Below, one piece after another: positions 23,727 to 44,860 of a DNA stretch of 64,000 nucleotides. The position numbers were made by a program, and so were the translations under genes. Positions within the stretch are counted from its first letter, which is position 1. Each line of letters starts with the position of its first letter. The DNA is from an uncultured Gemmatimonadota bacterium (GTDB taxonomy: Bacteria; JAAXHH01), in the NCBI GenBank assembly GCA_951812955.1, contig OX638340.1, positions 672,001 to 736,000 on the forward strand. Direction: 5' to 3'. Below the pieces are notes generated by a model, which was not told the DNA's origin, did not search any database, and was given only the letters and a program-made list of their open reading frames with translations.

Positions 23727-24614
23727 ATGGTGTTATTTGTTGAAGCGGGAAGGGCTGGACGGTGTACATTACTGCGTCCCAGCCGTACCTACAGGTGGCG
23801 CAAACAGCAAACACAGAAAGCGTACCGAGTGACCTACTTGATCCGGACCGCCGTCGTCATGCTCTTGTTGACCGTCATGATCGCCGTGGCTCTGCCAACG
23901 GCCCGTGGACAACGTACGCCCGATTCTCCCGTAACGAGCTGGCGCAAACTCGAAACGCGGATGACAGACAATTGCGCCCTCTGTCACCAGCGCCTGGGCG
24001 AACCCCTCGCCAAACAGGTCGCGCAATGGCAGGGGAGCATCCATGCGTGGCGCGGAGTTTTCTGCGACACGTGCCACGGGGGCGATCCCACCAGCACCAT
24101 CCTCACCGTGGCCATGGGCGAGCAGAATGGGTTCATGGACGCGCCGCTGCCCGAGGCCATACCCGATGACTGCGGACGCTGTCACCCGGAAGCGCTGGAA
24201 AGCTTCTGGGAAAGCGCCCACGGGGACCTGTTCGAGGCCAATGACTTCGAACCCGGATGCGTCACCTGCCACGACAGTCACGACGTGAAGGAAGTGCATA
24301 TCGACATGGTATCGATCACCGCGCCTTGCGGCGAATGCCACGACCAGGACTATATCGACGAGGTCCGCAACCCCCTGGTCGACACGGACGGAAGATTAGA
24401 ACGGCTCTACGGCCAGATCCTGGCGATGCCAGGGGACAACCCCAACGCGCCCTACCTCCGCAACCGTCTCATCCGCGTCCGCAAGCAGTTCCGTGGCCTG
24501 GCCCACTACCTGGCCACCAACACCATTGTCACCAAGCGGCAGGCTATCGACCGGGAACTCGACTACATCGAATTCATGCTGCATTTCGATGACAACACCG
24601 TCGAAGGCAAGTAG
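23727..24614 (+). CDS. Membrane-anchored or secreted pentaheme c-type cytochrome
   Basis: Five CxxCH motifs (CALCH, CDTCH, CGRCH, CVTCH, CGECH) and a signal/anchor-like segment MLLLTVMIAVALPTARG. The probable true start is GTG 23831 or ATG 23859. Confidence 0.75.
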   Translation: MVLFVEAGRAGRCTLLRPSRTYRWRKQQTQKAYRVTYLIRTAVVMLLLTVMIAVALPTARGQRTPDSPVTSWRKLETRMTDNCALCHQRLGEPLAKQVAQWQGSIHAWRGVFCDTCHGGDPTSTILTVAMGEQNGFMDAPLPEAIPDDCGRCHPEALESFWESAHGDLFEANDFEPGCVTCHDSHDVKEVHIDMVSITAPCGECHDQDYIDEVRNPLVDTDGRLERLYGQILAMPGDNPNAPYLRNRLIRVRKQFRGLAHYLATNTIVTKRQAIDRELDYIEFMLHFDDNTVEGK

Positions 24615-24722: not shown

Positions 24723-24746
24723 TGACAGGCTTTGCGAGGTAAGGTT

Positions 24747-24819
24747 GCCGAGGTAGCTCAGGCGGTAGAGCAGTGGACTGAAAATCCATGTGTCGACAGT
24801 TCGACTCTGTCCCTCGGCA
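24747..24819 (+). tRNA. tRNA-Phe (anticodon GAA)
   Basis: GCCGAGGTAGCTCAGGCGGTAGAGCAGTGGACTGAAAATCCATGTGTCGACAGTTCGACTCTGTCCCTCGGCA folds as a cloverleaf: a 7-bp acceptor stem GCCGAGG/CCTCGGC, an AGCTCAG D-loop, a CTGAAAA anticodon loop and a GTTCGACTC T-loop. CCA is not encoded. Confidence 0.9.
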
Positions 24820-25302
24820 TTTCATTTCATATTCAAATAGTCGACTGTCGTGGCAATCTTGGCCCGTGTATCCCACGCCGAGGCGCCAGCAGCTTTAGAA
24901 AGCTCAGGCGCGCCACCAAAGCCACCGCTGCCTGGAAATCCTGGGATGGCCCCAGCCACCCCCGATGTGCTGGCACGGATTGCATCCCCATCGTACCTCC
25001 CGTCCGTTCTTCCATACTGCCACTGGTATTTCCGCGGACAACCGCCTGCATGCTGCATCATCCCGCAGACCGGTTACCTCGAAATCACAGCCTGTTTGAC
25101 AACGGCGCCGCCCGGTCGATAGGCGGCAAAAAGCGAGGCGGCCGCGTCGGCTCGAAATGCGAAGCACAATTCTTTCGCAACGTTTCAGGTAAACCAGGGG
25201 TCAAACAACAGATCGCCATAATCAAGCAAATGACAACAGACACAAACCAGTTCATCCGCTGACGCTCCAAGACACCCATTTCCCTGAACCCAAGGCGCAA
25301 TC

Positions 25303-27723
25303 ATGTTCCGAAATTACCTCAAGATCATCCAACGAAACACCCTGCGCCAAAAGGGATACGCCGTGATCAACGTCCTTGGTCTCGCGGTGGGGATGGCCAG
25401 TTGCATCCTGATCATGCTCTATGTACAGGATGAACTCGGTTATGACCGGTACGCGGCGCGGCACGACCGGATCTATAGGCTTGCCATGTCGATAGAGACG
25501 GCGGACAGAGCGGAAACCAGGACCGCGCGGAGCCCGGCAGCCTGGGGATGGATGCTGGCCGACTCCTTCCCGGATGTCGAAGGATACGCCCGGGTAAAAG
25601 CACCGCTGGTCTCCTGGCAGGTCACCTACGTGGAGGGCAACAAACGGTTCAACGAACCGGGATTCTATTTCGCGGATCACGGCATACTGGATATGTTCGA
25701 TTTCGAACTGGTACGCGGCGATGCGAACACGGCCTTGAATGCCCCCAATACGGTGGTGATTACCGAAACCACGGCGGCAAGGTACTTCGGACGGGACGAA
25801 GCACTGGGCAAAGTGATTCGGATCGATAACACGTACGACCTGACCGTTACCGGCGTAATGCAAGACGTACCGCGCAATTCCCATATGACGTTCAGTTTCC
25901 TGGGGTCCTTCGAAACGCTCAACGTGAACCCGATTTACGGTGGGCTGGATTACGGCCGGAATACCCAGAACTTCGCCCCGGACCTGTACACCTATCTGCT
26001 GCTAGCCGACGGTTACACGCCGGATTCCCTCGAACCGAAACTGGCGGAGTTTGTAGAAACGCGCTACGGACCGGCCCTGCGGCAGTTCAACGCGCAAATC
26101 AAGGCCAGTCTTCAGCCACTGACCAGCATTCACCTGCATTCGAACCTCGACGGGGAACTGGGCGCGAACAGCGACATCGCTTACATCTACATCTTCACGG
26201 CCGTTGCTTTCTTTCTACTGTTGATCGCCTGCATCAACTTCATGAACCTCGCGACGGCCCGCTCCGCCGGGCGAGCCAGGGAGGTAGGTATCCGCAAGGT
26301 ATTGGGGGCGTACCGCGTTCAGTTGATCGGTCAGTTCATGGGTGAATCCACGATCATGGCGTTGCTTTCATTGGCCGTGGCCGCGGGACTGGTCCTTGCG
26401 TTTCTGCCGGCGTTCAACACCCTGGCCGGCAAGGAACTGATCTTTGCCTTCGACGATATGCGCACGGTATTCGGCCTGCTCGGAATCGTTGTGCTGGCCG
26501 GTGCACTGGCCGGCAGCTATCCGGCACTGTTCCTGTCTTCATTCCAACCGGTCTCCGTGCTGAAGGGCTCTTCCAGGGCGGGTGCGGTGAATACGAACCT
26601 TCGGAAGATACTGGTCGTACTGCAATTCGTAATATCGGTCATGTTCATCATCGGCACGGGCGTGGTAGCAGACCAGATGCGGTTCGTGCAGGACAAGCAC
26701 CTTGGATTCGAGAAAGAACAACTGGTGGTCATGCCGCTCGGAGACCCCAGGCAACGCGTGATCTACAATGCCTACAAGGACAGGATCGCCGACTATCCCA
26801 ACGTATTGGGCGTTACGGTGGCCAACGAATTGCCGGGCGGCCTGGTGAACGACATCCTGTTTACTCCGGACGGCGCTCCGGAAGAGGAATCGGTCCGCAT
26901 CAACAACATGTGGATCGACCACGACTTCATCCGCACGATGGGCGTTGAACTCGCGGAGGGGCGCGATTTCTCCAGATCCTTCCCCGCGGATACGATGCAG
27001 TCTTTCGTGATTAACGAGGCCGCCGTAAAATGGCTCGGTTGGGTAGACGCTCCGATCAACAAGAGAGTCCGCCTCGGAAACTTCAAAGATGGGCGGGTCA
27101 TCGGTGTTGTGCGAGACTTCCATGTGCGGTCACTGCACAGCGACATCGAACCGATGATGCTGCAGCTGCCGCCCAGTCCGGACCCGTACCATTATCTCGC
27201 CGTGCGGATTGCACCGGATGACGTGGCCGGAACCATGGGATTCCTGGAAGGCAGCTGGCGCGAGATCTATCCGGACGACTCGTTTACCTATTCGTTTCTT
27301 GACGCGGACTTCGACAGTCTGTATCAGAATGAAGCACGGCAGGGACGCATCTTCCGGAGTTTCTCCCTGCTGGCCGTTTTCATCGCGTGCCTTGGTCTGC
27401 TGGGACTTGCCTCCTTCACCGCGGAACAGCGAACCCGGGAAATCGGCGTGCGGAAAGTGCTGGGCGCGACCGCATCCGGCATCGTCGCGCTGGTTTCGAA
27501 AGAATATGTCAAACTGGTCGTGTACGCCAACTTGATCGCCTGGCCTGTTGCCTACTATGTGATGAACGGCTGGCTCGACAGCTTCGCTTACAGTACGGGC
27601 CTTTCACCCTGGGTTTTCGTGCTCGCCGCGGCGCTTGCGATAGCCGTTACGATGCTGACGGTAAGCTACAAGGCCATCAGCGTCGCCCACACCGATCCCG
27701 TGGACGCGTTGCAACACGAATGA
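25303..27723 (+). CDS. FtsX-like ABC transporter permease with two FtsX domains (MacB/YtrF-like); no adjacent ATPase
   Basis: 806 aa. An N-terminal TM is followed by a large extracytoplasmic domain, and two hydrophobic FtsX-type 4-TM bundles are separated by a second loop. Confidence 0.75.
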   Translation: MFRNYLKIIQRNTLRQKGYAVINVLGLAVGMASCILIMLYVQDELGYDRYAARHDRIYRLAMSIETADRAETRTARSPAAWGWMLADSFPDVEGYARVKAPLVSWQVTYVEGNKRFNEPGFYFADHGILDMFDFELVRGDANTALNAPNTVVITETTAARYFGRDEALGKVIRIDNTYDLTVTGVMQDVPRNSHMTFSFLGSFETLNVNPIYGGLDYGRNTQNFAPDLYTYLLLADGYTPDSLEPKLAEFVETRYGPALRQFNAQIKASLQPLTSIHLHSNLDGELGANSDIAYIYIFTAVAFFLLLIACINFMNLATARSAGRAREVGIRKVLGAYRVQLIGQFMGESTIMALLSLAVAAGLVLAFLPAFNTLAGKELIFAFDDMRTVFGLLGIVVLAGALAGSYPALFLSSFQPVSVLKGSSRAGAVNTNLRKILVVLQFVISVMFIIGTGVVADQMRFVQDKHLGFEKEQLVVMPLGDPRQRVIYNAYKDRIADYPNVLGVTVANELPGGLVNDILFTPDGAPEEESVRINNMWIDHDFIRTMGVELAEGRDFSRSFPADTMQSFVINEAAVKWLGWVDAPINKRVRLGNFKDGRVIGVVRDFHVRSLHSDIEPMMLQLPPSPDPYHYLAVRIAPDDVAGTMGFLEGSWREIYPDDSFTYSFLDADFDSLYQNEARQGRIFRSFSLLAVFIACLGLLGLASFTAEQRTREIGVRKVLGATASGIVALVSKEYVKLVVYANLIAWPVAYYVMNGWLDSFAYSTGLSPWVFVLAAALAIAVTMLTVSYKAISVAHTDPVDALQHE

Positions 27724-27902
27724 GCCGTCGGCGCCCCGCTTGGATTTCTGGTTTGACGACCTCCCCTTGCAACTGTAGATTCCATCGTCTCGAAGGTATA
27801 AAGTGCGGGCAAGCATCACCGTAACTTCATGCGACCATTAAGTCGCGCATCGCGGCGCATCGCGCAGATCTGCCGTGCCGCCCGGGAAAGACAGCGCTGA
27901 TC

Positions 27903-29834
27903 GTGGCTACTAAAAACTATGCCTCGCTGCCTTACACCGAACCGGACAACCTCGTCCGGGATTTCGCCAGTCGCGGCATCGTCGCCCTGCCGCCTGAAAG
28001 CCTGGGCATCCCCGAAGAAATCCATCATCGCATATACACCCTGGAAAAGCAGGCCTACCTGGCGAGAAAGCCCGTAACACCGGGCGGCATGCCGGACGTC
28101 CTGAAGGTCATCAACGCCCCGGGCGTGGTTGAAGCCTGCAACCGCATCGTGGGACGAAACTGGGCCATCGTCCCTTTCACACACAACGCCTCATTCGCGA
28201 GCGGCGCGCGGGACCAGCACTGGCACAAGGACGACAACGGCCCCTACAACGGCCGCAAGCAACGCCATCACCAGGCTGTGCAGATCGAAATGCTGTACTA
28301 TCCCCAGGACGTGAGCGAAGTCATGGGGCCGACGGCCACCATCCCCTACTCCCATTACTGGACGTTCAATCACGAAGAGAACCATGATAATTTCGCGGGG
28401 GCCGATCACCTCGATTTCGAGTACCAGATCAGCGGGATGGAAGGCGTCCCGGTCAGCGGTCCCGACTCCGAATACGACTGGGAGGAAGTCGTCCAACGGC
28501 GCACGGCCCACGACGTCCGCATGCGGGAAGCGGTGACCAATACGGGATGGCCCCTCGTGAGACCCTACGAGGCCGCGCCGCTACGGGCGGGAAGCGTGCT
28601 GCTTTACTCCCACAACACGTTCCACAGGGGAAATCACAGGCGCGACGACTGGAAACTGTGGGACAGCCATCCGCGCTTCATGTGGCGATTCTGGATCTAC
28701 CGAACTACCGAACCGGCCATACGCGATGGCGATGATCCCGGGGAAACCGCCTGGCGAAGCCTCGGCGCGGACCCCTTGACCGGTGTTGACCTGCGGTCGG
28801 CCGATGACGACGTGACGGTTGTCTGGCGCTACCACAACTACTGGATGCAGACCGGGAAAACACCCCCGCCGAGACCCGAAGCCGATTCGCAATCCATTGC
28901 GGGACGGAAATCCGAGGCACGGAATCTAAACGCGCAGTTGCACGCCATGGGCGACGAGTCGGAACCTCTCCGTATCGGCGCGGCCTACAAGCTCGCTTCG
29001 ATCGGGGACGACGCACTGGCGGTAAAGCACCTCGGCGAGGCGTTGTACAGTCATAGGGAAAGCGTACGCCGGGCGGCGACTTACGGCCTGATCGCCACTG
29101 GAGAGCAGGCCACGGCGACCTTCATCGAAGCGACGAAGTCACCGGTCAAATGGGTCAGAAAGGCCGGCGTATACGGACTGGGCGACTGCGCGCCGCTCAC
29201 CGACGAAGTACTGGCATCCGCAACTTCGCTCCTCCACGGTGATCCGTCCGTCTACGTCCGTGCTGTAGCCGCCGGAACACTGGGCTGCCTGGGACGGCGC
29301 GCCGCGGGAACGGGTATCGGAACGACCCTGATTCCCCGATGCCTCGCTGCGCTAGTACGCAGCATCGAGCGCGAAGAGAACCGGCTGAGCATGGACCTTG
29401 CGCAGCAGCGTAGCATCAAGTTCGCGCGACCCACCGACGCGTGCGACGTCTGCGAAGGCAACGGAGTCGACATGGGCCTGGACCGGTTCGAACCGGTACG
29501 CTCGGCGGTTCGGGAAAACGCCTTGTGGTCCATGGTCATCCTTTGTTCCCATGGAACTTACCTGGCGGACGATGCCCTGGTTTCCACCATCGAAGCCTTG
29601 AAAATGGTGGTGCGCAACGATAAAAACGTCATCTGCGTAGGATTCGCAATGGACGCCCTCAATCGCCTGGCGAACCTGGAAACCACCGGACCCACGCCGG
29701 CCGCGCTCGACAGACTGCGTGCAGACCTGCTGCAGATTCTCGGCGAATCCCCCATACGGTGCTGGGAAGCGCTCGTTCGGGGCGGACTGAGTACGGAGTT
29801 CCTGGCCGCGTTCTCCGAATCCGAAGCCGGATAG
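27903..29834 (+). CDS. Fusion protein: N-terminal PhyH-family Fe(II)/2-oxoglutarate dioxygenase domain plus C-terminal HEAT-like repeat domain
   Basis: N-terminal domain carries ...ASGARDQHWHKDD... (H-x-D) and ...IPYSHY... (distal His). The C-terminal roughly 300 aa contains repeated helical motifs of the PBS-lyase HEAT type (VRRAATYGLIATGEQA; VRKAGVYGLGDCAP; VRAVAAGTLGCLG). Starts on GTG. Confidence 0.6.
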   Translation: MATKNYASLPYTEPDNLVRDFASRGIVALPPESLGIPEEIHHRIYTLEKQAYLARKPVTPGGMPDVLKVINAPGVVEACNRIVGRNWAIVPFTHNASFASGARDQHWHKDDNGPYNGRKQRHHQAVQIEMLYYPQDVSEVMGPTATIPYSHYWTFNHEENHDNFAGADHLDFEYQISGMEGVPVSGPDSEYDWEEVVQRRTAHDVRMREAVTNTGWPLVRPYEAAPLRAGSVLLYSHNTFHRGNHRRDDWKLWDSHPRFMWRFWIYRTTEPAIRDGDDPGETAWRSLGADPLTGVDLRSADDDVTVVWRYHNYWMQTGKTPPPRPEADSQSIAGRKSEARNLNAQLHAMGDESEPLRIGAAYKLASIGDDALAVKHLGEALYSHRESVRRAATYGLIATGEQATATFIEATKSPVKWVRKAGVYGLGDCAPLTDEVLASATSLLHGDPSVYVRAVAAGTLGCLGRRAAGTGIGTTLIPRCLAALVRSIEREENRLSMDLAQQRSIKFARPTDACDVCEGNGVDMGLDRFEPVRSAVRENALWSMVILCSHGTYLADDALVSTIEALKMVVRNDKNVICVGFAMDALNRLANLETTGPTPAALDRLRADLLQILGESPIRCWEALVRGGLSTEFLAAFSESEAG

Positions 29835-29917
29835 ACTCGCAGACCTCTTTTTCGTTTCACTGTCTACGCGGAGCACCGTACTCCTCGGAACGTACCTGCC
29901 AGATTGATACAAGGGCG

Positions 29918-30910
29918 ATGCCCGTGCCGCATATCCTCGTCGAAAATATCGTCAAAACCTTCCGCATCGCCCAGCGCCGATCCGGGCTCTGGGGGGCCTT
30001 CCAGGGCGTCCTTCGCCGTGAATACAGGACGATCAAGGCCCTGGACCGCGTCTCCTTCGAACTGGCGCAGGGAGAACTGGTCGGTTATATCGGACCCAAC
30101 GGGGCGGGCAAGTCCACGACCGTTAAAGTCCTCTCCGGCATCCTGGTACCTGATTCGGGACGTTGCGAGGTCGATGGGCGCGTCCCATGGCGAAACCGTA
30201 TCGCCAACGCGGCCAACATCGGCGTGGTGTTCGGACAGCGGACCCAGTTGTGGTGGGATCTGCCCGTTATCGAATCTTTCGACCTGCTTCGGGATATCTA
30301 CCGGATCGGAAGCGGCGAATACGAGCGGGCCAGGGACGAGCTCGCGGCGCTCATGGATTTGGAACCGCTGTACGATATCCCGGTGCGTCAACTCAGCCTC
30401 GGACAGCGCATGCGGTGCGACCTGGCCGCGGCCCTGCTTCACGCACCCTCGGTGCTCTTCCTGGACGAGCCCACCATCGGCCTGGACGCCGTGTCAAAAC
30501 TTGCCGTACGGGATTTCATCAAGCGGCTGAACCGGGAACGGGGCGTTACCGTCGTACTGACAACCCACGACATGGACGATATCGAGGCCCTGTGTGAACG
30601 CGTGATGGTGATCGGTCACGGGAGCATTCTGTCCGACAGCACGCTGGACGACCTGCGCGCCCGTGTCACCCGGGAACGTCGTCTCATCATAGATCTGCTC
30701 GACGATGGCCAGGCGATCGAGGACCCGGACGTCGACTTCATCTCGCGAAGCGGAAACCGTGTCCACCTGCAGTTCGATCCGGACCGCGTTCAGACCGCGG
30801 CCCTGATCAGCCGGATTACGGCGAAGTACGCCATCAAGGACTTGTACGTAGAGAACCCGCCGATAGAAGAAATCATTTCCCGGCTGTACGACGAACACGA
30901 ACTCCGCTGA
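29918..30910 (+). CDS. ABC transporter ATP-binding protein (ABC-2 type, uncharacterized-transport-system class)
   Basis: Walker A GPNGAGKST, LSLGQRMRC signature, Walker B LLFLDEPTIGLD, and an H-loop TTHDM. The upstream extension of the listed ORF is rejected. Confidence 0.85.
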   Translation: MPVPHILVENIVKTFRIAQRRSGLWGAFQGVLRREYRTIKALDRVSFELAQGELVGYIGPNGAGKSTTVKVLSGILVPDSGRCEVDGRVPWRNRIANAANIGVVFGQRTQLWWDLPVIESFDLLRDIYRIGSGEYERARDELAALMDLEPLYDIPVRQLSLGQRMRCDLAAALLHAPSVLFLDEPTIGLDAVSKLAVRDFIKRLNRERGVTVVLTTHDMDDIEALCERVMVIGHGSILSDSTLDDLRARVTRERRLIIDLLDDGQAIEDPDVDFISRSGNRVHLQFDPDRVQTAALISRITAKYAIKDLYVENPPIEEIISRLYDEHELR

Positions 30911-30923
30911 AAACCGGCCAGGC

Positions 30924-31730
30924 ATGATACAATCCTTTGTTCTCCCGTATACCGCCGTGCTATCCGCCCGGTTCCGGATGATCCTCCAGTACCGGGCCGC
31001 GGCCATTGCCGGCTTCGTCACGCAGATCGGCTGGGGCGCGATACGTGTCATGGCCATGGAAGCCTTTTACCGGTCCACGAACGCCCCCCAGCCCATGAAC
31101 CTCGAAGACGTAGTGACCTATGTCTGGCTGGGCCAGGCCCTCCTCGGCCTTTTACCGTGGAATCCCGACACGGAAGTCCGCACCATGGTCCGCTCCGGTA
31201 CCGTGGCCTACGAGCTGGTCCGGCCGGTAAACCTCTATGCCTACTGGTTCTCCCGTTCGCTGGCATTCCGTATAGCGCCGACACTGATGAGATCCATCCC
31301 GCTTGCGTTACTTGCGTTGCTGTTTTTCGGGATGCAGCCTCCGGCATCACCGGAGGCACTGGTCGTCTGGCTGGCGGCGACCCTCGGCGCGGTATTGCTA
31401 AGTACGGCGCTTACCGTAATCCTCACGATTACATTAATGTGGACGATTTCGGGGGAAGGCGTGGCCTTGCTTGTCTCGCCGGTCATCTATATTCTGGCGG
31501 GAATGGTCATCCCCCTGCCGCTCTTTCCCGACTGGGCGCAATTCGCGCTCGAAATCCTGCCTTTCCGCGGCATTTGCGACGCTCCGTTCAGGCTGTACAT
31601 GGGCCATATACCAATCACGGAAGCCTGGACCGTCCTGCTACATCAGTTGATCTGGATCATAGTCCTGGTGGCATTCGGCGCATGGTTGCTCTCGAAAGCG
31701 ACCCGCCGCCTGGTCATTCAGGGAGGCTAA
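30924..31730 (+). CDS. ABC-2 family transporter permease
   Basis: Multi-TM hydrophobic protein immediately downstream of the ATPase and 3 bp from the next permease. Confidence 0.65.
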   Translation: MIQSFVLPYTAVLSARFRMILQYRAAAIAGFVTQIGWGAIRVMAMEAFYRSTNAPQPMNLEDVVTYVWLGQALLGLLPWNPDTEVRTMVRSGTVAYELVRPVNLYAYWFSRSLAFRIAPTLMRSIPLALLALLFFGMQPPASPEALVVWLAATLGAVLLSTALTVILTITLMWTISGEGVALLVSPVIYILAGMVIPLPLFPDWAQFALEILPFRGICDAPFRLYMGHIPITEAWTVLLHQLIWIIVLVAFGAWLLSKATRRLVIQGG

Positions 31731-31733
31731 CGG

Positions 31734-32537
31734 ATGGCGAACCCACTTGCGCTGTACACCCACTACGTGAGCATCTCCCTGCGCAGCCAGATGCAGTACC
31801 GGGTCTCCTTCATACTCGGTACGATGGGACAGCTGCTCGGTACGGCGGTGGAATTCATCGGTATCCTTGCCCTGTTCGACCGTTTCGGGAGCCTGAGCCA
31901 GTGGTCGCTCGCCGAGGTCGCATTCTTCTATGGACTGGTCAACGTGGCATTCGCCGTCACCGACATGTTGTCTCGCGGATTCGACCACGTGGGCGACCTG
32001 GTGCGCACGGGCGAGTTCGACCGCATGCTGCTCAGGCCCCGGAGCACCGTGCTCCAGTTGATCGGGCAGGAATTCACACTGAAACGGTTCGGACGGTTTT
32101 TTCAGGGCGGCGGCGTCCTGCTCTGGTCGACGCTCTACCTGGACATCGCGTGGTCTCCGGCAGTCGTGGCCCTAACCGCGGTAACCGTAATCTGCGGCGC
32201 CTGCTTCTTTCTCGGCCTTTTTATCAACATCGGTACGCTGTCCTTCTGGACCACGGAGACCCTGGAACTCATGAACGTGTTGACCTACGGCGGCATTGAG
32301 GCTTCCAAATACCCCCTGGCCATCTATCGGACCTGGTTCCGCAGGTTCTTCACCATGGTGATCCCCATGGGATGCGTGACCTATTTCCCGATCCTCGCCA
32401 TTCTCGGCCGGCCGGACCCGCTCGGTACGTCTCTCGCGTTTCAATACACCGCCCCTTTCTTCGGCCTGCTGTACTTTGTGCTGTCGCTATTCATCTGGCG
32501 ACTGGGCCTGAGGCACTACCGTTCGACCGGAAGCTGA
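31734..32537 (+). CDS. ABC-2 family transporter permease (second subunit)
   Basis: Paralogous multi-TM protein; the operon layout is typical of ATPase plus two ABC-2 permeases. Confidence 0.65.
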   Translation: MANPLALYTHYVSISLRSQMQYRVSFILGTMGQLLGTAVEFIGILALFDRFGSLSQWSLAEVAFFYGLVNVAFAVTDMLSRGFDHVGDLVRTGEFDRMLLRPRSTVLQLIGQEFTLKRFGRFFQGGGVLLWSTLYLDIAWSPAVVALTAVTVICGACFFLGLFINIGTLSFWTTETLELMNVLTYGGIEASKYPLAIYRTWFRRFFTMVIPMGCVTYFPILAILGRPDPLGTSLAFQYTAPFFGLLYFVLSLFIWRLGLRHYRSTGS

Positions 32538-32691
32538 CGCGCACACCCGATCACCGGTACGGAGCACGCGCTTACGGTTGTATTCGGGACGGAGCACGCG
32601 CTCCCGGCGCACCCGAGGGCAAGCCCGCCATACCATCGGGATACACCGTCCTTCTTGACGATACCGCGGGTCCCGTATTAATTGGACCGGT

Positions 32692-33147
32692 ATGGCGAAC
32701 GACAGACAATATCGATCGAATACGCGCTTCGTAGCCACCCGCGGCGTCAAGGAATACCGGGCCAGCATACCCGAGTGGGTGAATGAATCCGATACCGTCC
32801 TCGAAATCGGCTGCGAATGGGGCACGACGACCCGGATCATCTCCGACCACGCCGCGTCGGTCATCGGTACAGATGTCAGTCCGGAAGTAATCGAACGGGC
32901 CCGGGAACGCCACCCCCACATTCGGTTTGAAGCGCTGGACGCATTCGACGTGAGGGCGGCGCTCGAATTGAACGTGGACTTCACCAAGATCTACATCGAC
33001 ATGTCGGGGATATCCGGCTACCGGTCGCTGCTGGACCTGATCGCCCTGCTGAACAGCTATGCCGCCGTGTTGAGACCGGAAGCGATCGTGGTCAAGAGCG
33101 GCGCCTTGAAGCACTTCGCATCCCGTTGCATCCCGTTCAAAGGGTGA
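32692..33147 (+). CDS. Class I SAM-dependent methyltransferase (small, about 150 aa)
   Basis: LEIGCEWG glycine-rich SAM-binding motif and a downstream acidic residue (IGTDVS). Confidence 0.55.
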   Translation: MANDRQYRSNTRFVATRGVKEYRASIPEWVNESDTVLEIGCEWGTTTRIISDHAASVIGTDVSPEVIERARERHPHIRFEALDAFDVRAALELNVDFTKIYIDMSGISGYRSLLDLIALLNSYAAVLRPEAIVVKSGALKHFASRCIPFKG

Positions 33148-33899
33148 TGGAGCCTCCTATGTGCGACCACCTGCCCACCAGTGGATCTGGCGTTCCGTCA
33201 GGTCGAAAGACCGGCATCCTCGTCCATGGCTACAATCTGAATGCCGGCCAGTGGGAGTCCGTGGTCTGGGGAGAACCGCGTGACCGGACCGGCCGCGTGC
33301 CCATGGGCGTGTTCGTCGCCCTGTGTGAACAGGCGGACGTAATGGTCTTTGGTTCCGGCGCGTCCAGAAAGGACGGGCTGCTGGAGTCCGAGTCCACGGC
33401 CCGATTGTTATGGGAACGGTTTGACGAACTCGCCGGATTTTCGGTATTTGGAAACTACCTGCACGAACTGAAGCGTCCTCCTTCAGCCGGCCGGTTCAGG
33501 AAACGGATTGAATCCATTTTGCGCCTGGACACGGATTCGAGGAATACCCGTGATGAAATCGCCCATGCCGGCGAGGTATTCGTCGACCTGGACGTGGAGC
33601 GGGTCATCCTGGTATCGAGCCCGACTCACCTGCCGCGTTGCCTGCGGGACGCCTGCTCAATCTACGGTGAGAACAGAAAAATGTCCCATCTGCGGCAGGA
33701 ACTCTACGCCACGCCCAGCGTCACCGGTTATCCCGGCTACTCGGCGGACGACGTCGCCATTTTCGAACCGCCGCATCGACCGGACCGTCCAGGATCAAAC
33801 CTCAGCAGGTTGGTGGCCCGAGTCCACGACCTCCCGGACAACGCGCGTGAACGGTTTGTCCGTCGCATGGAAGACCTGCTCCGGGAATTCAGGGTGTAA
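33147..33899 (+). CDS. DUF218-like (YdcF/ElyC/SanA family) protein
   Basis: GILVHGY...VMVFGSGASR...ILVSSPTHLPR resembles the DUF218 core. Its start overlaps the methyltransferase stop (TGATG). Low confidence. Confidence 0.4.
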   Translation: MEPPMCDHLPTSGSGVPSGRKTGILVHGYNLNAGQWESVVWGEPRDRTGRVPMGVFVALCEQADVMVFGSGASRKDGLLESESTARLLWERFDELAGFSVFGNYLHELKRPPSAGRFRKRIESILRLDTDSRNTRDEIAHAGEVFVDLDVERVILVSSPTHLPRCLRDACSIYGENRKMSHLRQELYATPSVTGYPGYSADDVAIFEPPHRPDRPGSNLSRLVARVHDLPDNARERFVRRMEDLLREFRV

Positions 33900-33953
33900 G
33901 CATAGATCCAGCGACCGGATCGGGATTCAGCAGGCAATCGCGAGGAGCAAGGC

Positions 33954-34772
33954 ATGATGACCCCGGAACAAAGGTACCTGTTCGATGTTTTTGGATACCT
34001 GCACATTGAAAATGCGCTTTCAAAAGAGGAACTCACGGCCTGCCAGCGAGCTTCGGCCCGATACATGAACACGCCGGAAGACAGGCTCCCGCCCGGATTC
34101 GGATTCGACGGCAAACGCCATCTCCATGGGTTCGCCTTCGACAAGTCGCTGGAAGCCCTGACCCGCCATGCGTCGATCTGGCCCATCGTCCGGGAACTCA
34201 CCAACGACAAGCCACGGTTGATCAGCGGCACCCTCCAGGTGGACCGTCCCGGCGAATCGGCCGTGGGCGGACTCCACTGCGCCAGGGAGGGATTCGGATG
34301 GGAGAGCACCCGGTACGAGACGCATCACGGAAGGGTCTATTGCGACGACATCATCGTGTTTCCCTATCTGGACGACGTATTGCCCGGCGACGGCGGCCTG
34401 ATCGTCCTGCCCGGATCCCACAAGGCCAATTTCCCGCGGCCGGAGCACCTTTTCAACAACGGGCTCATGCACGGTGTGGAGGACCTCGCGCCCGGCGTGG
34501 TCAACATCACGCCCAGGGCGGGTGACATCATCGTGACCTCGGAGCTCATGACCCACGGCATCCTGGAATGGCGGCCCAGGGACCGCATCCGGCGTATCGT
34601 CGTGCTGCGTTACAAACCCCAGCACGCCGGGCTCGCGACGCCGTTTCCCGATGAGATTAAGGCCGTGCTTTCTCCCGAAACTCGGGAACTGATCGAGACG
34701 GCCCACTACAACCATGTCAAGGAAATCGTGAAGGACGACCCGGACGGCAGCCCGAAAAGGGCGATTTCATGA
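33954..34772 (+). CDS. PhyH-family Fe(II)/2-oxoglutarate oxygenase with an atypical first metal-ligand motif H-C-A (His-x-Ala) in place of H-x-D/E
   Basis: ...PGESAVGGLHCAREGFGW... aligns to the PhyH '...G...WHQD' block, and ...GGLIVLPGSHK... matches the distal-His block. I verified the codons directly: cac tgc gcc = H C A. Confidence 0.7.
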   Translation: MMTPEQRYLFDVFGYLHIENALSKEELTACQRASARYMNTPEDRLPPGFGFDGKRHLHGFAFDKSLEALTRHASIWPIVRELTNDKPRLISGTLQVDRPGESAVGGLHCAREGFGWESTRYETHHGRVYCDDIIVFPYLDDVLPGDGGLIVLPGSHKANFPRPEHLFNNGLMHGVEDLAPGVVNITPRAGDIIVTSELMTHGILEWRPRDRIRRIVVLRYKPQHAGLATPFPDEIKAVLSPETRELIETAHYNHVKEIVKDDPDGSPKRAIS

Positions 34773-35929
34773 ACATCAGGGATATCCGCGCCTTCACCGT
34801 GGACCTGTCTCGTGCCAGGAAAGCGGTCAAATCCTCGCTGCAAAGGAAAGGCCGCCAACCTGCCGGCCCCATGGATCGATACCCTGACTACCGGGGCAGT
34901 CGTTCGGCCGCGGGACCCTCCTGGCCAAGCGCGGCGTGCATTGTCGAAGCTGATGACGGATCTTTCGGCCTGGGTATCACCCAGCAGAGCGGCCCGGTCC
35001 TTCCCATCATCAACGATCACTTCCGGTCGCTGCTGGCGGGTCAGCCCGTCATGGCAACGGAGAAGTGCTACGACCTCATGGTCCGCGCGAGCGCCGCGTA
35101 CGGAAGCCAGGGCGCGGCCGGTTTCGCCATCAGCGCGGTGGATCTTGCGCTCTGGGACCTGAAAGGCAAGCTACTCGGCAGGCCGGTGTACGAGTTGCTG
35201 GGCGGTCCACAGAAGAAACACATCGACTGCTACGCCACGGGATTCGATATCGAATGGTACCTCGAGCTGGGGTTCAAGGCGGTTAAACTGCCTATGCCTT
35301 ACGGCCCCGACGACGGGATCGACGGACTGAACCGGGCCGATGAAATGGTTGCCGAAACGCGGGCGACGATCGGCGACGATATCGAATTGATGCTCGATTG
35401 CTGGATGGCGCTTGACGTGGAATACGCCGTTAGGTTGGGCGAGACGCTGAGACCCTATCGGTTGAAGTGGCTGGAGGATTACCTGATGCCCCACGACCTG
35501 GGCGGATTCGCGGCCGTCCGGCGTCGCTTACCTGCACAGGGTCTGGCCACGGGAGAACACTGGTACCTGGCGGAACCGTTCCTGTATGCCGCTGAACACC
35601 GGCTGGTGGATATCTTTCAACCGGATATCAAGTGGTGCGGCGGGATGTCCGCCGCGGTCCGCATCTGCCACATCGCCGAGGCCGCCGGGTTGACCGCCGC
35701 ACCGCATGGCGCCATGAACGATCCCTATGGACAACACCTGGTGTTCGCCATGCCCGCGGCAAGGTGGGGCGAAAGGTCAAGCGGAGTCTCCCCGCCCGGG
35801 GTACCCCTCGCGGAGATGGTTGAACTGCCGGGAACGGCCGTTATCGAAGACGGCTGTTTGACGCCCAGTGACGCTCCGGGTTTCGGGATCGAGGTGGACC
35901 AGGCATGGCTGGACCGCTTTGCCGTATGA
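34769..35929 (+). CDS. Enolase-superfamily enzyme (mandelate racemase / muconate lactonizing enzyme subgroup; dehydratase or epimerase)
   Basis: ...DLALWDLKGK..., metal-ligand acidic residues in ...LMLDCWMALD... / ...KWLEDYL..., and DIKWCGG. Its start overlaps the previous stop (ATGA). Confidence 0.8.
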   Translation: MNIRDIRAFTVDLSRARKAVKSSLQRKGRQPAGPMDRYPDYRGSRSAAGPSWPSAACIVEADDGSFGLGITQQSGPVLPIINDHFRSLLAGQPVMATEKCYDLMVRASAAYGSQGAAGFAISAVDLALWDLKGKLLGRPVYELLGGPQKKHIDCYATGFDIEWYLELGFKAVKLPMPYGPDDGIDGLNRADEMVAETRATIGDDIELMLDCWMALDVEYAVRLGETLRPYRLKWLEDYLMPHDLGGFAAVRRRLPAQGLATGEHWYLAEPFLYAAEHRLVDIFQPDIKWCGGMSAAVRICHIAEAAGLTAAPHGAMNDPYGQHLVFAMPAARWGERSSGVSPPGVPLAEMVELPGTAVIEDGCLTPSDAPGFGIEVDQAWLDRFAV

Positions 35930-37095: not shown

Positions 37096-39315
37096 ATGCA
37101 TATATTTCAAGGGCTGTATCTTAACGTAAGGCCGATGGACTGTCAAGTCGAGGTCGACTTGGCAGGATTGCCCGGCAAGGGTACATACCGAAGGAGGAAG
37201 GGTGTGTCGACTCGCGTCAGCGTCCTGATTATCTCGGCTGTGTTTATCAGCTTAACCGCTGTGCTTTGCGATGGTTCTGGTCTGCCGGAACCGCCAAAGT
37301 ACACCGGCGATCTACCGGAACTCCGTGCGCGCGGTGTGATCCGTTTCATAGTTCGTCCGGATGCAATCGACCATATACCCCGCAATGCGGAGCCCGTTGA
37401 GCTCGACCACGACATGGCAAGGGGCATAGCCGAATCGCTTAAGATGGAATTGCGGATGATCACGGTCGACGACCACCGATCCATGGTCGACAAGCTCCTG
37501 CTGGGCGAGGGTGACATTGTCGCCGCGAATCTCACGGATACACCAGAACGGGAGGCGAAAACCGCATTTTCGGTTCCCTATCACTATGTCGATGAGTACC
37601 TGATCGTTCCCGCCGGCGAAAGTGTCCCGGATAGCCTTGGCGATCTGGCCGGCATGGAGATCAGCGTTCGGGAATCCAGCGCATACTACCAGACCCTCCT
37701 GGAGTTGCAGAAGCAGGTGCCCGACCTGAGGATAAACATCGTCCCAGAAACGATGCTGACGGAAAGTATCATCGACGGGGTAGCCCGCGGTGAGTTCGAG
37801 GCAACGGTCTGCGACAACAACCTTTGGTATGCCGTCGAGAAAGCCTACGACGACCTGGCCGCGCCGCTTGTGTTGGCGGAAAACCGTGAGATCATCCTGC
37901 TGATGCGGCCCGGCGACGAGGAACTGAAGAAGAAAGTCGACGAGACCCTGCTGGCGCTGCAGCTATCACGCACCCGCGAAAGCGTTTACACCGATGACCT
38001 GGACGGTTTGAAGAAGCGCGGCCGGCTTCGCATGATCACGAGAAACAACACGCTCACCTATTTCATTCACCGCGGAATGCAGGTCGGTTACGAATACGAA
38101 TTACTGAAAGAATTCGCCAGTCGGCATGATCTCCGCCTGGAAATCGTCATACCGGACAACCACGCCAAACTGCTCGACTACCTGAACGAGGGAAAGGGAG
38201 ACATCGTCGCCGCGGCCATGACGATCAACGAAGAGCGGGAGACGAAAGCGGATTTCACCATATCATACAACGACGTGGATGAACTGGTGGTGGTCCGCTC
38301 GGATGAAACCGACATTTCGAGTTTCGGGGATCTTGCCGGACGCAAGGTGCATGTCCGGGCCAGTTCATCGTTCCGCGCTACGCTCGAGGCGGTCGCCGAT
38401 TCCATCGAAGGGCTGGAGATTGTCGAGCTTCCGGACGATATCGAAACGGAGGACATCCTGGTCGGTATTGACGAGGGTATCTACGATGTGACCATGGCCG
38501 ATTCCAACCTGCTAGAGGTGGAACAGGCCTATGGACGCAACCTGAAGGCCGCGTTTCGTGTCAAGCCGGCTTCGCTGGGATGGGCGGTGCGCAAAAACAA
38601 TACTGCCCTCGGTGCCGCGCTCGACCAGTATATCAAGCAAGAAAAAAGAGGGCTGTTCTTCAACCTGATGCACAAAAAGTACTTCGAGAACCTGCGTACA
38701 ATCGCCAAATCCAGGGATTCTCTGAGGGTTGATCTGAGCGGGCAGCTTTCTCCGTACGACGATCACGTCAAGAAATACTCCGAATATTACGGGCAGGACT
38801 GGCGGCTGGTCACGGCGCAAATGTATCAGGAATCCAAGTTCGATCCGGATGCCGTGAGCTGGGTTGGTGCCCTGGGACTCATGCAGGTGATGCCGGCAAC
38901 GGGAAAGCAGATGGGTTTCACCGAACTGCATGACCCGGAGCAGGGGATCCATGCCGGCGTGAAGTACATGGATCACCTCCTGAACCGATTCGATCCCAAA
39001 CTGCCGATGGAGGTGCGGGTGCACTTCGCCCTCGCTTCCTACAATGCCGGATACGGCCATCTCCTCGACGCAAGGCGCCTGGCCAGGGAACTGGGCCGGG
39101 ACCCCGACCAGTGGTTCGGGCACGTAGAACAAGCCATGCTGCTCCTTTCCAAACCCGCTTACTACAAACGCGCCCGATACGGATTCTGCCGCGGCGGCCA
39201 GCCCGTCCACTACGTCGCGAACATACAGCAGTCCTACGAAGCCTACGTGGAAGCGCTCGCCTCGGACAAACCGGTTTTCTCGGACGACGCGGCTGAACTC
39301 GCCACGCGGAAATAG
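37096..39315 (+). CDS. Membrane-bound lytic murein transglycosylase (MltF-like) with two tandem solute-binding (SBP_bac_3-like) domains and a C-terminal SLT domain
   Basis: Two paralogous domains (...GDIVAANLTDTPERE... and ...GDIVAAAMTINEERE...) followed by ...ESKFDPDAVSWVGALGLMQVMPATG...YNAGYGHL (SLT catalytic motif). The start may be the internal GTG near 37204. Confidence 0.7.
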   Translation: MHIFQGLYLNVRPMDCQVEVDLAGLPGKGTYRRRKGVSTRVSVLIISAVFISLTAVLCDGSGLPEPPKYTGDLPELRARGVIRFIVRPDAIDHIPRNAEPVELDHDMARGIAESLKMELRMITVDDHRSMVDKLLLGEGDIVAANLTDTPEREAKTAFSVPYHYVDEYLIVPAGESVPDSLGDLAGMEISVRESSAYYQTLLELQKQVPDLRINIVPETMLTESIIDGVARGEFEATVCDNNLWYAVEKAYDDLAAPLVLAENREIILLMRPGDEELKKKVDETLLALQLSRTRESVYTDDLDGLKKRGRLRMITRNNTLTYFIHRGMQVGYEYELLKEFASRHDLRLEIVIPDNHAKLLDYLNEGKGDIVAAAMTINEERETKADFTISYNDVDELVVVRSDETDISSFGDLAGRKVHVRASSSFRATLEAVADSIEGLEIVELPDDIETEDILVGIDEGIYDVTMADSNLLEVEQAYGRNLKAAFRVKPASLGWAVRKNNTALGAALDQYIKQEKRGLFFNLMHKKYFENLRTIAKSRDSLRVDLSGQLSPYDDHVKKYSEYYGQDWRLVTAQMYQESKFDPDAVSWVGALGLMQVMPATGKQMGFTELHDPEQGIHAGVKYMDHLLNRFDPKLPMEVRVHFALASYNAGYGHLLDARRLARELGRDPDQWFGHVEQAMLLLSKPAYYKRARYGFCRGGQPVHYVANIQQSYEAYVEALASDKPVFSDDAAELATRK

Positions 39316-39334: not shown

Positions 39335-40708
39335 ATGGATTCCGACGTCAGAGACCCCATCCGCCGGGCACCCTGGCAGAACCTCCAGGTACTCATCCAG
39401 GCCGATTCACGGCACGTACTGCCTTCCTATATCGGTTCGCTGACGGCGAGCGAACTCGCCCTGGCCGTCTCGCGCCTGAGCCAGGAAGAGCATACCCGGC
39501 TGCTCAATCTCCTTTCGCCCCAGGACGCGGCCGAGTTGATCGATCAGATCGAAGACGTGCAGGCGGTCGACCTGATCGAGGATCTCCCGGCGTCGGAAGC
39601 CGCGGCGATCGTCGACGAGATGTACAGTGACGCCCAGGCGGACCTGCTCGGCGACTTGAAAGACGAAGAAGCGGAAGCTATTCTCGAGGCGATGCCGGAC
39701 GAAACGGCCGAGGAAGTCCGGCGCCTGATGCAGTATCGGGACGATACGGCCGGCGGCATGATGCTGACCGAGTTTGTATCCTATCCCGCGGATTACTCCG
39801 TTCAGCACGTAATCGACGACCTGCGGAACAGACACGATGAATACGCCGGTTACGATGTACAGTATCTTTATGTTTCGGACGGACCGAAGCTGTCCGGTGT
39901 ACTGAGACTGCGCGACGTGCTCATGGCACTGCCCGGCCAGCCGCTCACGGAGATCATGTCGGCTGACCCGGTGCGCGTCGACGTCCATACGCCGCTTGAA
40001 GAAATGCGCGACCTCTTCGAGACCTATACCTATCTCGGACTGCCGGTTATCAATGAAGAAGGGAAACTGGTCGGCGTAGTACGCGCCGCGGACGTGCAGG
40101 AAAAACTGGCGGAGAAAACCGAAAGCGAGTTCCGAAAGACGAGCGGTATCGTGGGCGGCGAGGAACTGCGCAGCATGCCCGTCCTTACAAGGTCCTCTCG
40201 CCGGCTGTCCTGGCTCAGCGTCAACGTCGTGCTGAACATCCTGGCGGCGAGCGTCATCGTATTATACCAGGATACCATTGAAAAGGCGATCACCCTGGCG
40301 GTATTTCTGCCCATCATTTCAGACATGAGCGGATGCTCGGGCAACCAGGCCGTGGCCGTGAGCATCCGGGAACTGGCCCTGGGCCTCGTACGGCCCCGGG
40401 AGATCCTGCGCGTCCTCTTCAAGGAAGCCTCGGTGGGACTCATGAACGGACTGGCGCTCGGGACGCTCTTGGCCATAGCCACCCAGTTGTGGCAGGGAAA
40501 CCCGTACCTGGGTCTAGTCGTCGGAACCGCTCTGGCTGCAAACACAGTGCTCGCTGCGTGCCTGGGTGGGGTCATTCCCCTTGCGCTCAGGGCACTCAAG
40601 GCCGATCCCGCGCTGGCCTCCGGCCCCATGCTCACGACGGTAACCGACATGTGTGGCTTCTTTCTTCTCCTCAGCCTGGCGCAGTTCGTATTGCCGAAAC
40701 TGGTATGA
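39335..40708 (+). CDS. mgtE: Magnesium transporter MgtE
   Basis: N-terminal MgtE_N acidic domain, tandem CBS domains, and a C-terminal 5-TM domain with ...FLPIISDMSGCSGNQ... Confidence 0.88.
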   Translation: MDSDVRDPIRRAPWQNLQVLIQADSRHVLPSYIGSLTASELALAVSRLSQEEHTRLLNLLSPQDAAELIDQIEDVQAVDLIEDLPASEAAAIVDEMYSDAQADLLGDLKDEEAEAILEAMPDETAEEVRRLMQYRDDTAGGMMLTEFVSYPADYSVQHVIDDLRNRHDEYAGYDVQYLYVSDGPKLSGVLRLRDVLMALPGQPLTEIMSADPVRVDVHTPLEEMRDLFETYTYLGLPVINEEGKLVGVVRAADVQEKLAEKTESEFRKTSGIVGGEELRSMPVLTRSSRRLSWLSVNVVLNILAASVIVLYQDTIEKAITLAVFLPIISDMSGCSGNQAVAVSIRELALGLVRPREILRVLFKEASVGLMNGLALGTLLAIATQLWQGNPYLGLVVGTALAANTVLAACLGGVIPLALRALKADPALASGPMLTTVTDMCGFFLLLSLAQFVLPKLV

Positions 40709-44565: not shown

Positions 44566-44860
44566 GGTCTGTCCCGGACTAGGGTGAAAAACGGCGAGAA
44601 TCGTTGACGGACATCGCGATTATACTAACCGGACCGCATAGGGGTGTCAAGGCGTTACGAAGCTTTTGAACCGGCGAGGTGAATGTCGGTAAGATCGTCG
44701 AATGGAAAGCGATCCGCACCATGCGTTGAACGTCAGAAATGCCTTGTCAACACGGCCGCGGCATCTACCTTTTGCTGGATTGCCTTCGTTGAAGGAATCA
44801 CGACGATCGAGGTTTTCGTTCGCACGTTTCAAACTGGACCAGAAAAGGAGAAAACAGCCG

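Follow-up and report, generated by a model that had tools for sequence, protein, structure and literature searches.

Eight co-directional PhyH, ABC-2 exporter and sugar-acid dehydratase genes in an uncultured Gemmatimonadota bacterium: a probable juxtaposition of three modules

Does a run of eight co-directional genes with short gaps and overlapping ends encode one pathway, or have modules with separate histories come to lie side by side? The question is raised by a block of genes, here numbered g1 to g8, in the genome of an uncultured Gemmatimonadota bacterium (assembly GCA_951812955.1, contig OX638340.1, positions 672,001 to 736,000 of the forward strand). We refer to this whole stretch of 64,000 nucleotides as the window and count positions from its first letter. 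The block encodes, in order, a PhyH-HEAT protein (g1), an ABC-2 exporter triad of one ATPase and two permeases (g2-g4), an S-adenosylmethionine (SAM)-dependent methyltransferase (g5), a DUF218-like protein (g6), a second PhyH oxygenase (g7) and an enolase-superfamily enzyme (g8). An initial annotation, made from the letters alone, had interpreted it as one operon for the tailoring and efflux of a single metabolite. The underlying gene models stand: all eight plus-strand open reading frames (ORFs) are found at 27903-35929, the overlapping TGATG and ATGA junctions agree with the ORF coordinates, and profile searches against Pfam and NCBIfam bear out the domain calls, g6 falling just short of the DUF218 cut-off. 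The single operon itself is not supported, as synteny is confined to close relatives, modules are lost independently and a promoter-like element precedes g5.

The reading that we favor, with some reserve, is that three independently evolving modules, probably separately transcribed, lie side by side in a restricted lineage and do not form one pathway. The first module would be g1 by itself, a stand-alone PhyH-HEAT Fe(II)/2-oxoglutarate (2OG) oxygenase with its own promoter-like site. The second would be the ABC-2 exporter g2-g4, an insertion that only this sub-lineage carries between g1 and g5. The third would be g5-g8, a small operon read from a conserved, near-leaderless promoter-like element, in which g5 would be translationally coupled to g6 and g7 to g8.

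Gene order among close and distant relatives

The closest relatives of the window are uncultured Gemmatimonadota metagenome-assembled genomes (MAGs), many of them from sponges (e.g., GCA_028874685.1 and OY762445.1). Among these, OY762445.1 (locus L010) is the closest record, with 92-99% protein identity across the block. For the synteny test, an alignment of g1 (A1; 22 sequences from several phyla) led to 80 loci from species-representative genomes, and all window proteins were then compared with every locus by tblastn. The complete eight-gene order recurs in 11 loci, all with a g1 that is at least 80% identical, and in the same loci the flanks agree too, with cytochrome c, MacB, MscS, SBP-SLT and MgtE genes. 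A more distant relative, L002 (g7 82% identical), is collinear with the window over ~30 kb. The shared genes run from a Fer4/CCG protein, DHDPS, Iso_dh, FAA hydrolase and cytochrome c to MscS and BrkB, and continue through two aminotransferases, an HpcH aldolase, OCD and MFS. Because the flanking genes are collinear too, the conserved order reflects short evolutionary distance rather than selection for a unit. NCBI phylum labels conflict within this group: those of L012, L018, L024 and L028 disagree with those of L013, L015 and L023 (Latescibacterota or Gemmatimonadota), in a region that is ~85-90% protein-identical.

Inside the clade, the ABC triad, g8 and the g5-g8 segment come and go independently. 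L002 lacks g2-g4 together with MacB, and the triad has decayed in L020, which has lost g3 and part of g4. The dehydratase-like g8 is cleanly missing from L018 and L020, and in L019 its place is taken by an unrelated gene of the enolase superfamily (25% identity), which lies on the opposite strand. Finally, L022 keeps g1-g4 and has none of g5-g8.

At greater distance the arrangement dissolves. None of the 63 loci outside the clade (42 groups after removal of near-duplicates) carries any of g2-g6 within 10 kb of the g1 homolog. Distant homologs of g7 (59-73% identity) have other neighbors: they lie in islands rich in PhyH genes, together with genes for sulfatases, Opp-type importers and methyltransferases. 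Likewise, distant g6 homologs (44-50% identity) lie among GH116, GH38 and SASA genes, and no conserved partners of g6 were found in three distant loci. The expectation that the eight genes co-occur is thus borne out among close relatives and fails at distance for each of the anchors g1 (63 loci), g6 and g7; their conservation as one unit does not exceed what the overall collinearity of close relatives already gives.

Promoter-like elements and transcription units

Successive genes from g1 to g8 are separated by 83, 13, 3, 154, -1, 54 and -4 nt, with the g5 stop overlapping the g6 start in TGATG (33145-33149) and the g7 stop overlapping the g8 start in ATGA (34769-34772). A conserved promoter-like block lies directly upstream of g5. 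In 16 loci, the 44 nt before the g5 ATG have a mean identity of 84% and no indels, versus 36% in the next 60 nt upstream, and the rest of the 154-nt g4-g5 spacer is not alignable among clade members. The block combines TTGACG with an AT-rich box, TATTAATT (coordinates in Table 1). Across the loci TTGACGAT is invariant, as is the T-rich box TnTTWATTGG, and the 12-nt segment between the boxes is fixed in length and variable in sequence. The TTGACG ... TTWATT box ends 8 nt ahead of the ATG, and the whole has the pattern of a promoter for a near-leaderless mRNA, as predicted from its conservation and spacing. L002 has a different element before g5 (TTGACA, 17 nt, TAAAGA) in an AT-rich spacer.

Downstream of this block, the g6-g7 gap shows no conserved promoter-like block among the clade loci; only the Shine-Dalgarno sequence GAGGAG of g7 is conserved there, in nearly all of them. 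Because GAGGAG alone is conserved before g7, and because g5/g6 and g7/g8 overlap, g5-g8 look like one unit. Upstream of g1, a consensus scan predicts a further promoter-like site (TTGACG, 17 nt, TAGATT), and the TTGACG...GTAGATTCC segment is kept in 6 of 15 aligned relatives (L010, L011, L012, L018, L020 and L023).

The g1-g2 spacer is poorly conserved among relatives. It contains two GTAC half-sites, CCGTAC ... CGTACC, which are ~9-11 nt apart and partly conserved in the clade; placed upstream of the ABC ATPase gene, they may represent an operator. The block contains no regulator gene, and a search of the gaps for riboswitches and other RNA elements in Rfam matched only tRNA-Phe. Within the block, no terminator-like site is predicted on the plus strand. 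The check for internal signals that could split the block therefore came out on both sides, with a conserved promoter-like element before g5 and no plus-strand terminators.

These observations bear on two alternatives to the juxtaposition of three modules. In the first, all eight genes form one operon whose enzymes tailor a metabolite or peptide that the ABC-2 exporter pumps out. We consider this unlikely, even though all eight genes point the same way across short gaps and two overlaps, no plus-strand terminator is predicted and 11 related genomes preserve the full order. A shared strand says little alone, because it is not peculiar to these eight genes: multihaem cytochrome c, tRNA-Phe and MacB-like genes precede them in the same orientation. 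The order, for its part, persists only in loci whose flanking genes are collinear as well. The exporter is missing in L002 and decaying in L020, yet g1 and g5-g7 persist; g8 is absent from L018 and L020 and replaced in L019, and L022 does without g5-g8 altogether. The conserved promoter-like block before g5 argues in the same direction, and no anchor gene keeps its partners at greater distance. Nor is there a core biosynthetic gene near the block, whether for a nonribosomal peptide synthetase (NRPS), a polyketide synthase or the precursor of a ribosomally synthesized and post-translationally modified peptide.

In the second alternative, g1 and the ABC-2 triad are a functional pair, the oxygenase modifying a substrate or partner handled by the transporter, and g5-g8 are unrelated to both. 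This is less probable still. The four genes g1-g4 do occur together without g5-g8 in L022, and g1 and g2 are a mere 83 nt apart, a gap in which no terminator is predicted. However, the triad is missing beside g1 in L002, none of the 63 distant g1 loci encodes such an ABC-2 triad within 10 kb, and the intervening g1-g2 spacer is the poorly conserved one described above.

Table 1. Genes, predicted signals and neighboring features of the eight-gene block (window positions).
Feature	Positions	Strand	Details
g1, PhyH-HEAT	27903-29834	+	643 aa; Pfam PhyH, HEAT_2, HEAT
g2, ABC-2 type ATPase, DrrA/NatA-like	29918-30910	+	330 aa; ABC_tran
g3, ABC-2 permease	30924-31730	+	ABC2_membrane_6 (PF06182), 47 bits
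g4, ABC-2 permease	31734-32537	+	ABC2_membrane_6 (PF06182), 170 bits
g5, minimal class-I SAM-dependent methyltransferase	32692-33147	+	151 aa; Methyltransf_12 and Methyltransf_25, 38 bits each
g6, cytoplasmic YdcF-like DUF218 protein	33147-33899	+	ATG start 33147; alternative TTG 33126
g7, HygX-like PhyH oxygenase	33954-34772	+	Pfam PhyH, 28 bits; H108-C-A110
g8, enolase-superfamily acid-sugar dehydratase	34769-35929	+	MR_MLE_N and MR_MLE_C
Promoter-like site upstream of g1	27753-27781	+	Predicted
GTAC-containing half-sites, g1-g2 spacer	29866-29898		
Promoter-like block directly upstream of g5	32648-32691	+	Conserved; predicted; g5 ATG at 32692
TTGACG of the g5 block	32655-32660		
AT-rich box of the g5 block	32676-32683		
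Shine-Dalgarno GAGGAG for g7	33942-33947	+	
Multihaem cytochrome c	23727-24614	+	
ORF overlapping tRNA-Phe	24732-25262		176 aa; probably spurious
tRNA-Phe (GAA)	24746-24820	+	
MacB-like permease	25303-27723	+	806 aa; two MacB_PCD/FtsX units
MltF-like fusion	37096-39315	+	739 aa; SBP_bac_3 domains and SLT lytic transglycosylase
MgtE	39335-40708	+	
HpcH-type aldolase	44702-45616		

Predicted chemistry of the encoded enzymes

An amino acid, betaine or peptide derivative had been suggested as the substrate of this block. The enzymes appear to point rather to carbohydrate and sugar-acid chemistry. For g7, a sequence search of the PDB returns HygX, the hygromycin B orthoester synthase of Streptomyces hygroscopicus, as the only clear relative (E 9e-11). 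The AlphaFold2 (AF2) model of g7 has a predicted local distance difference test (pLDDT) score of 88, and its first 16 structural matches in a Foldseek search of the PDB are, without exception, chains of HygX (E 1.6e-16 to 6e-14). These are followed by SnoK and SnoN, PhyH-family natural-product enzymes of the nogalamycin pathway. The g7 family is widespread among marine Gemmatimonadota, Latescibacterota, Poribacteria, Chloroflexota and Planctomycetota, where its genes lie in islands that look catabolic.

The predicted iron triad of g7 is relocated, H108-x-A110 ... E197-x3-H201. In 20 homologs (52-82% identity), H108, C109, A110, R111, H156, K157, E197 and H201 are invariant, and MAFFT places HygX LHGG over g7 LHCA and HygX NEALMH over g7 SELMTH. 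HygX has a documented variant triad of this kind, H-x-G ... E-x3-H, with a relocated carboxylate (PMC13374393). The non-canonical motif noticed by the initial annotation is therefore real as far as HxA goes, and no ligand is missing: the carboxylate has moved to the HygX-type position in E-x3-H. We conclude that HxA in g7 signals no lost ligand and, most likely, no halogenase either. That g7 is an Fe(II)/2OG halogenase, with the block making and exporting a halogenated metabolite of a kind plausible in a sponge symbiont, is hardly credible: H108-C-A110 is invariant in the family, HxA/G is a halogenase hallmark and the HygX triad itself is described as "reminiscent of" halogenases (PMC13374393), but the invariant E197 four residues before H201 is the arrangement of HygX, an oxidative cyclase and not a halogenase, HygX is the best match of g7 in both sequence and fold, and carrier protein or NRPS context is absent.

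The partner of g7 in the ATGA overlap, g8, matches MR_MLE_N (43.5 bits) and MR_MLE_C (146 bits). Its PDB matches include 2oz3 (E 5.5e-64) and the L-rhamnonate dehydratase RhamD (2i5q, E 6e-60), the latter over 345 residues. The g8 segments LMLDCWM, LKWLED, TGEH, QPDIKWCGG and APHG align with the same segments of RhamD, which we take to carry the metal ligands and the His-Asp dyad. Against the L-rhamnonate dehydratase model NF011968, g8 scores 266.2 bits, below the equivalog cut-off of 393. On this sequence evidence, g8 belongs to the L-rhamnonate-dehydratase subgroup as an acid-sugar dehydratase that is not an equivalog, with its specificity unassigned.

A tentative route can be drawn from these two enzymes. 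The oxygenase g7 would oxidize a C-H bond of a sugar or glycoside, g8 would dehydrate an aldonic or 6-deoxy sugar acid to a 2-keto-3-deoxy acid, and an HpcH-type aldolase, such as the one encoded elsewhere in the window (Table 1), could cleave the product of g8. The HpcH step could complete a route like the rhamnonate pathway of E. coli. Overall, such a route would amount to the breakdown or modification of carbohydrates, as is typical of sulfated-glycan degraders in marine and sponge-associated settings. Even more speculative is the idea that g7 hydroxylates an anomeric carbon, so that oxidative cleavage of a glycoside would yield an aldonolactone to feed the coupled g8.

The g5/g6 pair is less readily placed. 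The relatives of g5 have the same length as g5 itself. The DUF218 score of g6 (27.1 bits) falls just below the Pfam cut-off of 27.6, and its homologs carry PF02698 and the NCBI name 'YdcF family'. Invariant motifs of g6 are GILVHG, NT..E, SSPTH and EPPH. The subfamily is rare, with only 160 relatives among 5.8 billion proteins. A record of Ectocarpus fasciculatus (P0357, 420 aa) holds a relative of g6 with 41% identity. E. coli YdcF binds SAM (PMC12176290) and, by analogy, the overlapping g5 and g6 may share a SAM-related role.

In the exporter triad, the ORF of g2 opens at 29759, and homologs support the ATG at 29918 as the start (the called gene of L001 has 328 aa). The g2 product scores 88 bits against ABC_tran and 201 bits against TIGR01188 (drrA), under the cut-off of 312. 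One ABC ATPase is thus followed by two PF06182 permeases, with gaps of 13 and 3 nt.

The first gene, g1, encodes a PhyH-like oxygenase domain (residues ~1-280), a linker and a HEAT-repeat solenoid (~335-643). Its match to PhyH (PF05721) is weak, at 26.2 bits versus a cut-off of 22 (E 1.2e-5, residues 77-243), and HEAT_2 scores 38.7 bits. Throughout A1, WH108-K-D110, the histidines H237, H241 and H245 in YSHNTFHRGNHRR, R258 and R262 are invariant. These would provide the HxD/E ... H iron triad and the 2OG-binding Arg, one of the three histidines presumably being the ligand. A cluster of cysteines, encoded at ~29286-29453, includes C462, C480 and C517, which are invariant, and C514, which is present in at least 90% of sequences, with the motif RPTDxCDVCEG. 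It lies in or beside a poorly modeled insertion of the HEAT domain and may form a metal site. A weak PADLOC match of g1, 'HEAT_CxxC_PD-DEXK' (17 bits), is probably generic.

Structural comparison adds little for this protein. The AF2 model built from A1 has a mean pLDDT of 65, with the catalytic region 99-181 below 50, and is too poor in the catalytic core to use. With this weak model, Foldseek against the PDB finds only HEAT/ARM repeat proteins, designed ones, and a PDB sequence search with g1 and the A1 profile returns only alphaRep/HEAT proteins and no match for the N-terminal domain. The family, more distant relatives included, has no name or NCBIfam model, and a literature search found nothing specific on PhyH-HEAT proteins of sponge symbionts.

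Full-length g1 homologs with 59-73% identity occur in Gemmatimonadota, Latescibacterota, Poribacteria, Planctomycetota, Opitutales, Chloroflexota, Handelsmanbacteria, Zixibacteria and Gammaproteobacteria. The family is 55-84% identical across at least 8 phyla, and pairwise identity among the 63 loci has a median of 67% and a minimum of 55% over ~640 residues, whereas neighbors that share a Pfam domain in the same pairs of loci are only 28-49% identical. Among 1.8 billion representatives clustered at 50% identity, the family forms roughly one cluster; a handful of full-length sequences stand apart at 41-48%, and more remote relatives at ~30-38%. Under single linkage at 74% identity or more, sequences with seven phylum-level labels fall together. 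Tandem copies also occur: an Opitutales MAG (L029, OY829953.1, 7869-16609) encodes three PhyH-HEAT paralogs, 70-79% identical, on one strand within 9 kb, and an enolase-superfamily gene comes after them. The cross-phylum linkage, tandem copies and high identity together indicate horizontal spread, duplication and strong constraint. A transcript of Gymnodinium smaydae (P0484, 824 aa) is a relative of the g1 oxygenase-plus-HEAT region with 28% identity; this record and the Ectocarpus relative of g6 may reflect contamination, symbionts or gene transfer.

The neighbors of distant g1 homologs vary by lineage. A sulfatase gene lies 2-25 nt downstream of g1 homologs in Poribacteria (L070) and Latescibacterota (L063), and a small PhyH gene sits directly upstream in L058. 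Other recurrent neighbors are UxuA-like, HpcH, enolase-superfamily, GFO/MocA and DegT genes, and their apparent common theme is the catabolism of sulfated glycans and sugar acids. In a Chloroflexota MAG (L092, GCA_039028975.1, 12014-14029), a sulfatase is fused to a weak HEAT_2 domain beside four PhyH genes, an Opp-type importer and a methyltransferase; the HEAT domains of this fusion and of g1 show no similarity in tblastn with E below 1e-3. The P0015 contig (ENA ERZ1305449) encodes six PhyH genes in ~5 kb.

A bolder proposal, which we hold to be improbable, is that the g1 family constitutes an unrecognized enzyme class of marine sulfated-glycan degraders, in which 2OG-dependent oxidation would act on a macromolecular or polymeric partner held by the HEAT platform, for instance a chain of sulfated glycan or a sulfatase. 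This would explain the ~67% identity across at least 8 phyla, the tight sulfatase operons and the tandem duplication in Opitutales.

Several points weigh against our interpretation of the block as three separate modules with a catabolic third. In the absence of a predicted plus-strand terminator, read-through from g1 to g8 is possible, and the predicted g5 promoter is a conserved consensus-like element rather than a mapped start site. The full set of eight genes does stay in order in 11 related genomes, and some functional cooperation is possible, such as export of a g5-g8 product by the triad. The methyltransferase fits a catabolic role poorly. PhyH, sulfatase and dehydratase genes abound in these genomes, and some of the g1 neighbors could be due to chance. 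Finally, the inconsistent NCBI phylum labels of these MAGs weaken counts of independent lineages.

Neighboring genes and comparison with known systems

Around the block, two indels interrupt the otherwise collinear relationship with L002. Between the cytochrome c and MacB-like genes lies a tRNA-Phe, overlapped by an ORF that is probably spurious (Table 1). In L002 and L019 the same tRNA-Phe is directly upstream of g1, and the MacB-like gene therefore looks inserted between tRNA and g1 in the lineage of the window. This MacB-like permease, which has no adjoining ABC ATPase gene, is found in most close relatives and missing from L002, L019 and L022. Beyond the block, the MltF-like fusion and the following MgtE gene are missing at the matching place in L002, the second indel difference. 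The window contains no paralogs of g1, g7 or g8. A defense-system interpretation was considered and rejected, as the PADLOC matches cover only generic ATPase, methyltransferase and HEAT domains.

In summary, the components of the block are new members of known superfamilies, and no new kind of system is demonstrated. We advise against treating the block as a biosynthetic gene cluster. Worth following instead are (i) the PhyH-HEAT family and (ii) the occurrence of the HygX-type triad in a marine PhyH family that is widespread. The former is an unnamed family without a solved structure, its cross-phylum conservation is unexpected for an accessory enzyme, and its recurrent coupling to sulfatases offers a concrete hypothesis for glycan degradation by sponge symbionts and other marine bacteria.

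The nearest analogy for g1 comes from fusions of repeat domains with 2OG oxygenases, such as AspH (TPR plus oxygenase), in which the repeats serve the recognition of macromolecular substrates. Both join a helical-repeat solenoid to an Fe/2OG catalytic domain. The likeness is one of analogy only, as g1 differs in its HEAT_2 repeats, its PhyH-like oxygenase and the reverse order of its domains, and we claim no homology.

The exporter has a closer counterpart. Operons for ABC-2 transporters that combine a NatA-like ATPase with COG3694 and COG4587 permeases have been reported with "unknown functions" (PMC6003355), in agreement with the initial placement of the triad in a conserved, functionally unassigned transporter class. 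The g2-g4 genes have the same composition, with the permeases in tandem. They differ from that class in the lack of a ppGpp riboswitch or other Rfam element upstream and in the position of the triad between two unrelated enzyme modules.

Similarly, g6 resembles E. coli YdcF in its borderline DUF218 match, the core SSPxH and NT..E motifs and the lack of an N-terminal membrane anchor, unlike the membrane-anchored DUF218 paralogs ElyC and SanA. It departs from YdcF as a divergent, rare subfamily whose pairing with a 151-aa methyltransferase occurs only in this clade. RhamD/YfaW (PDB 2I5Q, 2P3Z) is the corresponding reference for g8, with which it shares the enolase superfamily and the common motif segments; the setting is different in that g8 has no adjoining YfaU-type aldolase or transporter and the HpcH aldolase is 9 kb away.

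For g7, catabolic action of PhyH-family enzymes on sugar moieties has a precedent in the demethylation of 2'-O-methyl nucleosides (PMC12709175), although g7 is not close to those enzymes. Its closest known counterpart is HygX, a member of a PhyH subfamily with four PDB entries (4XC9, 4XCA, 4XCB and 4ZPI). The two have in common the H-x-(G/A) ... E-x3-H triad, a GSHKANFP motif and the fold (TM 0.65-0.73). They differ in sequence, with an identity of only 22-25%, in the Ala of g7 in place of Gly and in the shorter loop after the first His. Their contexts differ as well: g7 lies outside any aminoglycoside or orthosomycin gene cluster, and no biosynthetic genes of either kind occur in the window neighborhood or the related loci. 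An unusual iron site, known until now from an antibiotic pathway, is thereby extended to abundant, catabolic-looking enzymes of marine heterotrophs, and the widespread small PhyH oxygenases with HxA should be annotated with this HygX-type triad in mind and with caution against the labels halogenase or inactive.

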